The position numbers were made by a program, and so were the translations under genes. A stretch of 35,481 nucleotides of DNA, taken from a virus (lineage: Duplodnaviria > Heunggongvirae > Uroviricota > Caudoviricetes). Below the pieces are notes generated by a model. The model was given only the letters and a program-made list of their open reading frames with translations, was not told where the DNA came from and did not search any database. The stretch is taken from the IMG/VR virus record IMGVR_UViG_3300033068_001655; one strand, 5' to 3'. Of the stretch, positions 94 through 30,229 are shown piece after piece; positions within the stretch are counted from its first letter, which is position 1, and the number at the start of each line of letters is the position of its first letter.

Positions 94-97
94 GTAT

Positions 98-129
98 AAA
101 AAAAGACCCAAACTTATGTTCGGGTCTTT
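98..129 (-). terminator. Intrinsic terminator/attenuator upstream of tRNA-Thr
   Basis: AAAGACCCGAAC-ATAA-GTTTGGGTCTTT followed by a U run; ends 4 nt before the tRNA. Confidence 0.85.
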
Positions 130-156
130 AGAAATTTTTTATAATATAACTTTGCT

Positions 157-246
157 TTATACCATACATATCTCATTACCCGAAGTCGTGCTATTCACAC
201 AATTCGTAATCGTAATCACATTAATATTTATAGTATTTGTTTTCAT
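157..246 (-). CDS. Putative attenuator leader peptide 1 (29 aa, MKTNTININVITITNCVNSTTSGNEICMV)
   Basis: Hand-translated. ATG follows promoter motifs; 6 Thr and 6 Asn codons; contains TTCGGGT (178-184), complementary to the terminator 5' arm. Confidence 0.75.
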   Translation of the reverse strand: MKTNTININVITITNCVNSTTSGNEICMV

Positions 247-300
247 TGTATTATATATTATATTTTTATTGTCCCTTTTTGTTTTTCTTTAATTATAGTA

Positions 301-328: not shown

Positions 329-553
329 CTAATCTTTTATTATATTTTTTAATTTTTCTTCTCTCAATTCTCTAATAGTAACATCTTTTGCTATTTCAGT
401 ATTAAAGATAACATATGTTGAATCGCAATTATCACAAGCCCATTTTTCATCACTAAAAGGTGGATCAACTTCACAATACTCAATTTCATCCTTTTTACAA
501 TGTAAACAAGGTTTCACTTCATATATCTTATCTTCAACTTTAATTAGTTTCAT
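329..553 (-). CDS. Small Cys-containing hypothetical protein with C-terminal R-E-x-K-L motif
   Basis: CLHC...CDNC putative Zn ligands; ends [12 protein letters not shown]. Confidence 0.7.
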
Positions 554-567
554 ATTTTAAATTTTTG

Positions 568-650
568 TACGGGTAGTCGGACTCGAACCGACACGTCCTT
601 TCGGACACTGGCTTCTAAAACCAGCGGGTCTACCATTCCCCCATACCCGC
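568..650 (-). tRNA. tRNA-Leu(UAG)
   Basis: CTGGT-TTTAGAA-GCCAG arm, long variable arm, canonical T arm, A73. Confidence 0.95.
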
Positions 651-657
651 GTATTTG

Positions 658-740
658 TATCGAAAGTGGGACTCGAACCCACACGTTCATTTGAACACTA
701 TGTTTTGAGCATAGCACGTCTACCATTTCATCATTTCGAC
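658..740 (-). tRNA. tRNA-Leu(CAA)
   Basis: CTATG-CTCAAAA-CATAG arm, class II cloverleaf. Confidence 0.95.
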
Positions 741-746
741 ATTTTG

Positions 747-829
747 TACCGAGAGCGGGACTCGAACCCGCACGTCCTTTCGGACACTGGCTTCTTAGAC
801 CAGCGTGTCTACCATTCCACCACCTCGGC
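747..829 (-). tRNA. tRNA-Leu(AAG), A34 anticodon
   Basis: CTGGT-CTAAGAA-GCCAG arm; body nearly identical to the Leu(UAG) copy. Confidence 0.92.
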
Positions 830-837
830 TTATTTTG

Positions 838-922
838 TATCGGAGGAGGGACTCGAACCCTCACGCCCCTTCCGGGACACAGCATTTTAAGTGCTGCGTG
901 TCTACCATTCCACCACTCCGAC
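838..922 (-). tRNA. tRNA-Leu(UAA)
   Basis: CAGCA-CTTAAAA-TGCTG arm, class II cloverleaf. Confidence 0.95.
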
Positions 923-932
923 AAGTGATTTG

Positions 933-1013
933 TACCCCGTGTAGGATTCGAACCTACATTTTCAGCTTCCAATTACCCTTAACTGTTTAGAAGACAGTCG
1001 GGACTAACGGGGC
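933..1013 (-). tRNA. Rearranged tRNA-like RNA, anticodon UCU (Arg), 81 nt
   Basis: 7-bp acceptor and T arm intact; ACTGT-CTTCTAA-ACAGT arm starts 8 nt after the acceptor; D-loop-like AATTGGA lies 3' of the anticodon arm. Confidence 0.7.
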
Positions 1014-1018
1014 ATATT

Positions 1019-1474
1019 TTATTTACGACAATATGTTTCAGTTTGACTATGGCAATTCGGACACAAAATTCTAAGATTTAATAACCTATTATCCATATTA
1101 TTACCATTTATATGATCTAAGTGCATTACAATTGGTTTACTATTCCAATCAGTTAGTTCACATATTTCACATTTGTTCTCTTTTAATTTTGCAGAGAATA
1201 ATTTTTCTTTTAATCTACCATTATTTGTGTAGGTAGAATTTTCTATTAAAATTTCCTCAAGAGAACAAGTCTTACCAAAATTTCTATATCTGGTTCCACT
1301 ATTCCATCCTTGTCCTGTAAAGTGTGAGGTGTCAATTTCTAATAATTTAAAATACTTTTTTAGTGTTTTATAATTACCACCAACTGGTCTCATTTCTAAT
1401 TTTCTACAGACTTCTGCAACGGATAGTGATTCTTTTACTATCGGTTCTAATGTTTCTTTATTATACTTACTCAT
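1019..1474 (-). CDS. HNH homing endonuclease inside the Leu/Arg tRNA operon
   Basis: CEIC...HLDHINGNNMDNRLLNLRILCPNCH motif. Confidence 0.88.
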   Translation of the reverse strand: MSKYNKETLEPIVKESLSVAEVCRKLEMRPVGGNYKTLKKYFKLLEIDTSHFTGQGWNSGTRYRNFGKTCSLEEILIENSTYTNNGRLKEKLFSAKLKENKCEICELTDWNSKPIVMHLDHINGNNMDNRLLNLRILCPNCHSQTETYCRK

Positions 1475-1550
1475 AATTTATATTTATTTTAGTATATATA
1501 TTAAAACTTAAAACTCGATTTTTTCAAAAACCACCAAGTATCACTTTTTG

Positions 1551-1634
1551 TACCGAGAACGGGAATCGAACCCGTACGCCATAAAGGCACGAGATTTTAA
1601 GTCTCGCATGTACTACCTATTTCATCACCTCGGC
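1551..1634 (-). tRNA. tRNA-Leu(UAA)
   Basis: CGAGA-CTTAAAA-TCTCG arm, class II. Confidence 0.95.
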
Positions 1635-1640
1635 TTTTTG

Positions 1641-1725
1641 TACGTCTGGAGGGACTCGAACCCTCACGGTCATTCTGACCACTAGGGCTTAAACCTAGCG
1701 TGACTTCCAATTCCACCACAAACGC
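1641..1725 (-). tRNA. tRNA-Leu(UAA)
   Basis: CTAGG-TTTAAGC-CCTAG arm, class II. Confidence 0.92.
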
Positions 1726-1745
1726 ATTTTGTGACATTTTTTTTG

Positions 1746-1817
1746 TGACCCCACAGGGATTCGAACCCCGATTGAAAGCTTAGAAGGCTTTAGTCCTATC
1801 CGTTGAACGATGAGGCC
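1746..1817 (-). tRNA. tRNA-Arg(UCU)
   Basis: AAAGC-CTTCTAA-GCTTT arm, canonical cloverleaf. Confidence 0.93.
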
Positions 1818-1834
1818 AATTATTTATTTTACAT

Positions 1835-1867
1835 AAAAAAACCCGAAACTTTTACATTTCGGGTTTT
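1835..1867 (-). terminator. Intrinsic terminator/attenuator of the Arg/Leu tRNA operon
   Basis: AAAACCCGAAA-TGTAAAAG-TTTCGGGTTTT plus U run; ends 17 nt before tRNA-Arg. Confidence 0.87.
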
Positions 1868-1895
1868 GTTATATTATTTAGATACTTTCAGTTAT

Positions 1896-1997
1896 TTACA
1901 TACTAAAATTACTTGCTCTAAATATAGCAAAACCCGGTTCACGTCTTAGACATAAGACATTCAGCGTTAAGTTAATATTTAGATTAGTTGTTTTCAT
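1896..1997 (-). CDS. Putative attenuator leader peptide 2 (33 aa, MKTTNLNINLTLNVLCLRREPGFAIFRASNFSM)
   Basis: Hand-translated. 5 Leu codons then AGA-CGT; codons 21-26 carry CGGGTTTTGCTATATT (1921-1936), a 15/16 complement of 1860-1875. Confidence 0.8.
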   Translation of the reverse strand: MKTTNLNINLTLNVLCLRREPGFAIFRASNFSM

Positions 1998-2002
1998 TAT
2001 TG

Positions 2003-2014
2003 TATATATTAAAA
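2003..2014 (-). promoter_or_regulatory. Recurrent phage motif TTTTAATATATA (putative phage-specific promoter)
   Basis: Exact or near copies upstream of genes at 252, 1495, 5575, 7062(+), 17008, 19954, 28558, 30203, 31252(+) and 32835(+). Confidence 0.6.
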
Positions 2015-2054
2015 GTTTATTCTCCCTTTTTGTTATTTTGTTATTTTTATAGTA

Positions 2055-2086
2055 CAAAAGTATAAAAAGTTTTATAATGTACCAAA
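2055..2086 (-). promoter_or_regulatory. Bacteroidota-type promoter (TTTG-N20-TACTTTTG) for leader 2
   Basis: -33 TTTG at 2083-2086 and -7 TAnnTTTG at 2055-2062. Confidence 0.75.
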
Positions 2087-2087
2087 T

Positions 2088-2315
2088 TTATTTTAATTTA
2101 TTTTCAAAAAATTCTGAAAGTTCTTTTATCAACTGTTCATTATCTTTTTGTGTTTTATCTTCATCTGCACTGTCAATAGGATCATCGAACCATAATCCTT
2201 TATTATCAAATCCTTTTGTTTTTACCCAAGTGATTAAATCATTTAATCCCCAGAATACTTCTTGTGGAGTGTCTGAACCCCAAGAGTGCATAAGTGTTAA
2301 GAAAAATTTTTCCAT
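2088..2315 (-). CDS. Hypothetical protein
   Basis: 75-aa ORF with TATATTTG upstream at 2343. Confidence 0.65.
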   Translation of the reverse strand: MEKFFLTLMHSWGSDTPQEVFWGLNDLITWVKTKGFDNKGLWFDDPIDSADEDKTQKDNEQLIKELSEFFENKLK

Positions 2316-2587
2316 TTTTTTATTTTTATTTTTTTTATTCTACAAATATAAGAAATTTTTTTATATCTAGATTAAAATTGAAAAAACACGTACCATCAAG
2401 CACATGTTTTTTCATCACACTAACTTCCGTTTTAATATTAAAAAGGTTGTTGTGAATAATCCATTTCGTAATAATCCTCCTGAAAAGGGTAACCTCCAAT
2501 CCACTAGTATAATGGTTGTGTTTTCCGAATTATTGGAAATAAATTTCTTTACTATTACTATATATAAACTTTTAAAATCGTTTTTTA

Positions 2588-29712: not shown

Positions 29713-29732
29713 ATATTTAATTTTAATTCAAT

Positions 29733-29771
29733 AAAAAAAACCCAATCTGATTTTTAAGTCAGATTGGGTTT
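29733..29771 (-). terminator. Intrinsic terminator/attenuator of the Glu/Tyr/Ile/Gly/Ala operon
   Basis: AAACCCAATCTGA-CTTAAAAA-TCAGATTGGGTTT plus U run; ends 20 nt before tRNA-Glu. Confidence 0.88.
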
Positions 29772-29797
29772 GTTATATAATAATGTGCTTTAACTCA

Positions 29798-29899
29798 TTA
29801 CTTTATAGACATAACGCTACTGACCGATGGTATTCTATACCCCGCTTCATATCCGCCTATGGCTTCTATAGCTATTGTTATGTTAGTAATTGTTGTCAT
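29798..29899 (-). CDS. Putative attenuator leader peptide 3 (33 aa, MTTITNITIAIEAIGGYEAGYRIPSVSSVMSIK)
   Basis: Hand-translated. Codons 9-21 encode only Ile(ATA), Ala, Glu, Gly and Tyr; lies between a promoter and the terminator. Confidence 0.8.
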   Translation of the reverse strand: MTTITNITIAIEAIGGYEAGYRIPSVSSVMSIK

Positions 29900-29968
29900 T
29901 TTTTCTATTTTTTAAATTGTTGTTTTTAATTCTTCTAGTCATTTTTAATGACTCTCGTTCTTCGAGTA

Positions 29969-29999
29969 CAAAGATACGATAAGTTTTTTAACTACCAAA
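29969..29999 (-). promoter_or_regulatory. Bacteroidota-type promoter (TTTG-N19-TATCTTTG) for leader 3
   Basis: -33 element at 29996-29999 and -7 element at 29969-29976. Confidence 0.78.
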
Positions 30000-30026: not shown

Positions 30027-30099
30027 TAGCGGGAGAAGGACTCGAACCTCCGACCTCAAGGTTATGAGCCTTGCGAGCTGCCTACTGCTCTATCCCGCG
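30027..30099 (-). tRNA. Initiator-type tRNA-Met(CAU)
   Basis: C1:U72 mismatch; CAAGG-CTCATAA-CCTTG arm. Confidence 0.92.
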
Positions 30100-30113
30100 A
30101 TATATTTTCTTAG

Positions 30114-30184
30114 TAGCGTACTGTGGATTCGAACCACCCCGTAGACCTTATGAGAGTCCCATGCAACCTTTACACTTTAACGCG
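30114..30184 (-). tRNA. Second initiator-like tRNA-Met(CAU), degenerate acceptor
   Basis: C1:U72; GGACT-CTCATAA-GGTCT arm; mismatches at 6:67 and 7:66. Confidence 0.72.
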
Positions 30185-30229
30185 ATATGTGTTTTATAGT
30201 TGTATATATTAAAAAGTTTATCTCTCTTT

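Follow-up and report, generated by a model that had tools for sequence, protein, structure and literature searches.

Layout of the leader and the tRNA operon

The tailed-phage sequence IMGVR_UViG_3300033068_001655 (Caudoviricetes; 35,481 nucleotides, in the following called the window) has a G+C content of 29 % and carries 18-20 transfer RNA (tRNA) genes together with genes for NAMPT, a helicase and HNH endonucleases; it looks like a part of a very large phage. This report concerns an operon of leucine and arginine tRNA genes at the low-numbered end of the window and the candidate transcription attenuator in front of it. All features of the attenuator and the tRNA array lie on the minus strand, in the 5' to 3' order promoter, leader open reading frame (ORF), terminator hairpin, tRNA-Arg(UCU) and remaining array (Table 1). 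The tRNA genes were called with ARAGORN and Rfam.

The promoter has the form TTTG-N20-TAnnTTTG, which we take to be the consensus of sigma-A promoters in Bacteroidota. It is followed by an A-rich 5' untranslated region (UTR), in which the TAATATATAC box may represent a second promoter of phage type, yielding a near-leaderless transcript. A promoter of the TAnnTTTG type was absent between the terminator and the first tRNA gene, in the window as in the related contigs described below. Thus, synthesis of the tRNAs from the leader promoter needs a read-through of the hairpin.

The leader encodes leucine with CTA (codon 6), TTA (10), CTG (12), TTA (15) and CTA (17), followed by AGA (18) and CGT (19). 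The original prediction, made from the sequence alone, had put this series just 5' of the antiterminator, and all seven codons were located there (1982-1941). The tRNAs encoded downstream read all leucine codons of the leader as well as AGA. In the codon usage of the phage, TTA accounts for 60 % of the leucine and AGA for 80 % of the arginine codons, and the operon supplies the tRNAs for both dominant codons. The first half of the leader is paralogous to the leader of an Asn/Ile/Val/Cys/Thr array.

The leader transcript can adopt alternative pairings between four regions. Between 1936-1921 and 1875-1860, 15 of 16 positions can pair in the RNA sense, the exception being one C.A mismatch. This antiterminator had been proposed with the same extent; when the 183-nt leader was shuffled 500 times with its dinucleotides preserved, an equally good inverted 16-mer match turned up in one case. 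The segment shared by antiterminator and terminator, AAAACCCG, contains all four G-C pairs of the terminator 5' arm. Folding the transcript only as far as the terminator loop gave the antiterminator as minimum-energy structure. In a transcript cut before region 4, the energy gain of the antiterminator was 7.1 kcal/mol, compared to a mean of 1.2 for shuffled sequences, one of which in a hundred equalled it. Judged by energy gain, it stood out most clearly among the three antiterminators of the window, so the earlier description as the clearest terminator/antiterminator switch was borne out.

Table 1. Features of the leucine/arginine leader and tRNA operon, and two further leader modules of the window
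Feature	Position	Strand	Basis or remark
Promoter, Bacteroidota-like host type: TTTG (2086-2083), 20-nt spacer, TAnnTTTG (TACTTTTG, 2062-2055)	2055..2086	-	invariant in all orthologues
A-rich 5' UTR with TAATATATAC box (2011-2002), 4 nt 5' of the ATG	1998..2054	-	sequence reading
Leader ORF, 33 codons and stop (ATG 1997-1995, stop 1898-1896)	1896..1997	-	sole ORF of at least 15 codons between promoter and terminator
Region 1, candidate anti-antiterminator, pairs with 1925-1917	1975..1983	-	minimum-free-energy structure of the full leader
Regulatory block LNINLTLNVLCLRR, codons 6-19	1941..1982	-	five Leu codons, then AGA, CGT
Local 8-bp hairpin over codons 13-19, candidate RNA polymerase pause hairpin	1941..1960	-	folding; kept in all orthologues
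Region 2, antiterminator 5' arm, codons 21-27	1917..1936	-	inverted repeat and folding
Region 3, antiterminator 3' arm; the 8 nt at its end (AAAACCCG) make up most of the terminator 5' arm	1860..1883	-	inverted repeat and folding
Intrinsic terminator: 12-pair stem (1867-1838), 6-nt loop, U7 ending at 1835	1835..1867	-	folding, conservation
tRNA-Arg(UCU), first gene, 17 nt 3' of the U tract	1745..1817	-	ARAGORN, Rfam
Two tRNA-Leu(UAA)	1550..1725	-	ARAGORN, Rfam
ORF of HNH-type homing endonuclease, inserted in the array	1019..1474	-	HNH motif in translation; DNA-level matches to phage genes annotated as HNH/homing endonucleases
81-nt tRNA-like RNA, anticodon UCU	933..1013	-	focused Rfam search
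tRNA-Leu(UAA), Leu(AAG), Leu(CAA), Leu(UAG)	567..922	-	ARAGORN, Rfam
74-aa ORF with CxxC...CxxC, starts 13 nt 3' of the last tRNA	329..553	-	kept at the same place in G002, G003, G004
Second module: Asn/Ile/Val/Cys/Thr-type leader 246-157, terminator 129-102, then tRNA-Thr	94-300	-	antiterminator significant, 2/100 shuffles
Third module: Ile(AUA)/Ala/Glu/Gly/Tyr leader (ATG near 29898), terminator 29768-29733, Glu-Tyr-Gly-Ala array	29713-29990	-	antiterminator not significant, 35/100 shuffles

Conservation and codon-matched sister leaders

Pattern scans of IMG/VR revealed five related contigs with the leucine/arginine module (G002, G003, G004, L058 and L063). Together with the window these six orthologues fall into three sequence groups. 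A scan with a leader-specific pattern recovered the same five contigs and no others. A helicase search of IMG/VR yielded two contigs, a search with the neighbouring 988-aa protein no relatives. Among the GenBank phages no close relative was found, only tRNA and HNH fragments matched. A metagenome scan anchored on tRNA-Arg(UCU) led to a different phage lineage with mixed arrays and no leader directly 5' of them, and added no orthologues.

Promoter and UTR were near-invariant in all five relatives, and the UTR was better conserved than the leader ORF. The ORF was open in each of them with a length of 33-34 codons. Both insertions or deletions inside the ORF comprised 3 nt, while those after the stop codon had sizes of 1-7 nt that were not multiples of three. 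All five leucine positions were kept, whereas about half of the other residues differed between the group of the window and the group of G002 and G003. The arginine codons in the leaders of the relatives were all AGA, the codon of the first tRNA. Codon 27, an AGA inside region 2 in the window, codes for glycine in G002 and G003. Behind the near-identical leaders of the window, L058 and L063, the first gene was always a tRNA-Arg(UCU), but the sequences of these genes are unrelated (L058 2860-2940, L063 5640-5720); hence the identity and position of the first tRNA were kept while its sequence was replaced.

Three mutually exclusive pairings and the hairpin over codons 13-19 are possible in all six orthologues. 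The pairing energies ranged from -10.7 to -14.5 kcal/mol for regions 1:2, from -14.6 to -20.5 kcal/mol for 2:3 and from -14.4 to -15.3 kcal/mol for 3:4. The 1:2 pairing and the 8-bp hairpin were predicted throughout, yet without a ribosome 2:3 is favored over 1:2 at equilibrium. In G002, a synonymous change from TTA to TTG in the local hairpin preserves the pair as U.G. G002 and G003 have an A as the final base of the shared segment, where the other four sequences have a G. This exchange is compensated in the antiterminator partner, from C-G to U-A, and also in the terminator partner, from G-C to A-U. The double compensation supports both helices at once, although it is effectively one evolutionary event. 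The affected codon changes from Pro to Met, which locates the constraint in the RNA and not in the peptide.

The tRNA regions of G002, G003 and G004 were mapped for tRNA genes, terminators and upstream ORFs. This analysis presented 17 modules of promoter, ORF, terminator and tRNA genes in seven classes, each leader being written in the codons of its own array. The block LNINLTLNVLCLRR precedes the Arg(UCU) and Leu tRNAs, TNTININVITITNCVNSTT an array for Asn, Ile, Val, Cys and Thr (Ser), and AIEAIGGYEAGY, with AUA for Ile, an array for Glu, Tyr, Gly, Ala and Ile(UAU). Arrays for Gln, Pro, Asp and Met follow MPQPMQDQD, those for Lys, Phe, His and Trp follow FKH..F.K.FKWF.HKF, and Ser(UGA) with Arg(ACG) follows SSSSSSRSS. 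For the six classes in G002, the true assignment of leaders to arrays had the highest total of cognate codons among 720 permutations. Compared with 123 random small ORFs from the window, most leaders ranked at or near the top. The pattern across the lineage argues strongly against a chance match of leaders and arrays.

A canonical strong intrinsic terminator was present immediately 5' of the first tRNA in every module. Antiterminators surpassed the shuffled sequences in four classes (Leu/Arg, Asn-Ile-Val-Cys-Thr, Asp-Gln-Pro and Lys-Phe-His-Trp). In these classes the antiterminator 5' arm begins 0 to 7 codons past the last cognate block, and the significant antiterminators always overlap the G-C core of the terminator. 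An antiterminator better than chance was not found in the Tyr-Glu-Gly, the Ser-Arg and the G004 Gln-Pro-Asp leaders.

The promoter and the A-rich UTR of about 55 nt form a near-identical cassette in front of different leader classes (window 1998-2090, minus strand; L058, L059 and L061-L065; G002-G004). Its TAATATATA box is situated 4-8 nt 5' of the ATG, and the cassette varies less than the leader ORFs do. The modules resemble copies of a single cassette in which the codon block was rewritten. A tRNA-Met(CAU) gene with a tRNA-like sequence just 5' of it (30027-30225, minus strand) directly follows a TAATATATACAA box, without leader ORF or terminator. Thus, not every tRNA unit is gated.

Probable ribosome-mediated attenuation and competing explanations

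Taken together, anatomy, conservation, covariation and the lineage-wide match of leader codons and tRNAs support the reading that a ribosome-mediated (leader-peptide) transcription attenuator gates this phage tRNA operon, and we consider this probable. Transcription would begin at the host-type promoter and the 33-codon leader would be translated while it emerges. With plentiful charged tRNA-Leu and tRNA-Arg(UCU), the ribosome would pass codons 6-19, cross region 2 and reach the stop codon at 1898. There it would sit within the prospective loop of the 2:3 pairing while region 4 is synthesised, leaving region 3 free to pair with region 4, so that the terminator forms and the polymerase halts at about 1835. 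Slow decoding of leucine or AGA codons would stall the ribosome 5' of region 2; regions 2 and 3 would then pair and sequester AAAACCCG, and the polymerase would read through into tRNA-Arg(UCU) and the leucine tRNAs. Since the products are the very tRNAs that are sensed, the circuit would act as a negative-feedback homeostat of decoding capacity.

The geometry was modelled with a ribosome footprint that extends from -15 to +12 nt, counted from the first base of the A-site codon. The antiterminator was intact with the A site on codons 1-17, partly affected on codon 18 and abolished on codons 19-27. In this model the permissive zone is filled by the five leucine codons as far as its edge, on which the arginine codons lie. 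The stop codon is located between regions 2 and 3.

Several observations weigh against an attenuator of this kind. A ribosome on the stop codon covers neither region 2 nor region 3, thus a block of the 2:3 pairing without a stall rests on a steric or kinetic argument. In the equilibrium model the terminator formed with a probability of about 1 wherever the ribosome was placed. With a terminator dominant at equilibrium the switch has to be kinetic, and the truncated transcript is the informative view; in the trp attenuator, the terminator likewise wins at equilibrium. The energy gain of the antiterminator in G002 and G003 was no better than in shuffled sequences. A Shine-Dalgarno sequence was not detected near the leader ATG, as is expected for Bacteroidota-type hosts, and we infer the translation of the leader. 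CGT at codon 19 is read by none of the tRNAs of the operon. The best 14-codon window of the leader contained six cognate codons (P ~0.015 against segments of real ORFs), a count also attained by 13 of the 123 random small ORFs of the window (~10 %); the leucine/arginine enrichment of this single leader, taken alone, is weak. In G002 the match of the leucine/arginine leader is slightly closer to the neighbouring Asn/Ile/Val/Cys/Thr array (0.31) than to its own (0.25), because the leader is a paralogue of the one that precedes that array. Under the model, stalls on codons of that array would likewise trigger read-through. A TAATATATA-like box at 1508-1493 precedes the HNH ORF, and this promoter-like element may independently transcribe the five RNAs 3' of it. 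The original prediction assigned six leucine and two arginine tRNAs to the control of the leader: the anatomy of the attenuator was conserved in the five contigs, but the inserted HNH ORF, which brings a promoter-like box of its own, qualifies the extent of control.

Some of these observations would suit a leaky, unregulated terminator or an element for 5' processing or stability, with the small ORF as an untranslated by-product of AT-rich sequence. Such an explanation accommodates the frequency at which random small ORFs reach the enrichment, the missing Shine-Dalgarno sequence and the constant dominance of the terminator at equilibrium. It leaves unexplained why the reading frame stayed open in six orthologues, with in-frame indels and all leucine positions conserved, why one base co-varies with its partners in antiterminator and terminator, and why six sister classes are codon-matched with the true assignment as the best of 720; we consider it quite unlikely. 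Translation of the leader could also act by a route other than the hairpins, e.g., by Rho-dependent termination upon loss of coupling, by protection of the precursor from RNases or by an effect on the 5' processing of the first tRNA. The uncovered antiterminator arms at the stop codon would be in line with this, as would the antiterminators that did not exceed shuffled sequences in three of seven classes and in the leucine/arginine leaders of G002 and G003. Against it stand the strong intrinsic terminator directly before the first tRNA of every module, the constant overlap of significant antiterminators with the terminator G-C core and the covariation that backs both helices, so that this route seems unlikely, if slightly less so than an unregulated hairpin.

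Even less credible is an inverted logic, in which stalling on leucine or arginine codons promotes termination, so that tRNA synthesis would be restricted to conditions under which decoding already runs efficiently. A ribosome stalled at the arginine codons 18 and 19 would indeed cover the initial 0-3 G-C pairs in the antiterminator, and region 2 itself includes a third AGA (codon 27). But all five conserved leucine codons are in the zone that leaves region 2 free, codon 27 is not conserved, and the other classes share the geometry. The same switch may respond to a signal other than the amount of phage tRNA, either the charging level under leucine or arginine starvation or a loss of host tRNAs, e.g., through anticodon nucleases or once host tRNA synthesis is shut down in infection, and thus serve as an alarm instead of a homeostat. 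A stalled ribosome cannot distinguish a missing from an uncharged tRNA, as established for the trp and his attenuators, and the codons sampled by the leader (TTA, CTA, AGA and the rare CTG) belong to several isoacceptors. Read-through yields tRNAs, which provide no relief of amino acid starvation. The sequence does not separate alarm from homeostat, and the two are not exclusive; we regard the alarm as a possibility, though a rather doubtful one.

Extended to all modules, the attenuator reading suggests a genome-wide, modular homeostat of decoding speed. Every array would be gated by its own leader and terminator, the leaders would jointly monitor essentially all amino acids, and each tRNA set would be made only when ribosomes slow down on its codons; the leaders would diversify by duplication of the cassette and rewriting of the codon block. 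We lean towards this extension, with less assurance than in the case of the single operon. The trigger could then be, for instance, a shutdown of the host tRNAs or their cleavage by defensive anticodon nucleases.

The layout of promoter, short codon-enriched ORF, segments 1-4 with predicted, mutually exclusive pairings (1:2, 2:3 and 3:4) and U-tailed terminator is the same as in the multivalent attenuators of enterobacteria (leuL, ilvL for Ile/Val/Leu, thrL for Thr/Ile; also trpL, hisL and pheL). On the attenuator reading, further common features are the sensing of more than one amino acid and a terminator more stable than the antiterminator, with a kinetic choice between them. In contrast, the phage targets are tRNAs and not biosynthetic enzymes, so that the sensed molecule and the product are of the same kind. 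The stop codon of the phage leader lies past region 2, not between regions 1 and 2, and its regulatory codons are interspersed instead of arranged in one run. The phage-encoded cassette is repeated ahead of at least seven tRNA arrays and has no sequence or covariance-model similarity to the enterobacterial leaders. No match at the gathering score was obtained with the Rfam models Leu_leader, Thr_leader, Trp_leader, His_leader and T-box. The best sub-threshold scores were 25.8 and 22.8 bits for Thr_leader (cut-off 55) and 14.1 bits for Trp_leader (cut-off 41), on both strands and covering the terminator hairpin only.

The pheM-pheST system of E. coli is likewise a leader-peptide attenuator on a component of the translation apparatus, and it responds to the supply of one charged tRNA. 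It differs in that its target is a synthetase and not a tRNA, one amino acid is sensed, and the system is cellular and not viral. T-box riboswitches also report the state of a specific tRNA by a choice between terminator and antiterminator, but they bind the uncharged tRNA directly without translation and possess a specifier loop and the T-box sequence, whereas the phage element has a conserved ORF. The tRNA-Phe genes pheU and pheV of E. coli were considered as a possible precedent with Phe-rich leaders and rejected: in K-12 the promoter abuts each tRNA gene, without upstream ORF or terminator. A description of leader-peptide control of tRNA genes was not found in full-text searches of the literature accessible without subscription. 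The known targets of leader-peptide attenuators are genes for amino acid biosynthesis, transport and synthetases; tRNA targets fall outside this range.

Why phages carry tRNA genes and how these are expressed has been debated for decades. The proposals include codon compensation, replacement of host tRNAs that have been degraded, and evasion of tRNA-cleaving defences (e.g., PMC10264068). If the attenuator operates as outlined, the phage would gauge the decoding speed codon by codon and top up only the limiting tRNAs. A textbook mechanism of amino acid and synthetase genes would be extended to the tRNAs themselves in a self-referential feedback loop. The leaders would be natural, compact and portable sensors for the availability of specific tRNAs, and the seven paralogous cassettes in one lineage a natural experiment in the re-programming of a sensor via a dozen codons.

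The tRNA array and neighbouring sequences

The operon had been described as encoding only leucine tRNAs (UAA three times, UAG, CAA and AAG) and two tRNA-Arg(UCU). The six tRNA-Leu genes, with these anticodons, and the first tRNA-Arg(UCU) were recovered. The second tRNA-Arg(UCU) turned out to be a tRNA-like RNA without D arm, and the operon also contains the HNH ORF and probably the 74-aa ORF. The tRNA-like RNA (933-1013) was not called by ARAGORN and scored 35.7 bits on the Rfam tRNA model. Its acceptor, anticodon and T arms are intact, about 9 nt take the place of the D arm, and 21 nt are inserted 3' of the anticodon arm (21-25 nt if the relatives are included), containing GGTAATTGG. G002, G003 and G004 have kept the RNA, and base changes in its acceptor and anticodon stems are compensated; for this reason it is probably functional.

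The HNH ORF had no match in Pfam. In G004 an ORF was missing at the insertion position, and the arrays of the relatives contained other HNH ORFs at other gaps, indicating that endonucleases move in and out of the tRNA arrays. The 74-aa ORF is probably co-transcribed with the tRNA array and gated likewise, since its gap to the last tRNA leaves no room for a promoter. Pfam and PHROGs revealed no family for the 74-aa, 75-aa, 151-aa and 988-aa ORFs.

The tRNA-Leu(AAG) at 746-829 (minus strand) has an A34 anticodon, which is uncommon in bacteria; Val(AAC) and Thr(AGU) were likewise present in the relatives. Upstream of the leader promoter, a strong terminator-like hairpin of 16 pairs was located 3' of the 988-aa ORF (2379-2414, minus strand). 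It ends the upstream transcription unit, ahead of the 75-aa ORF and the leader promoter.

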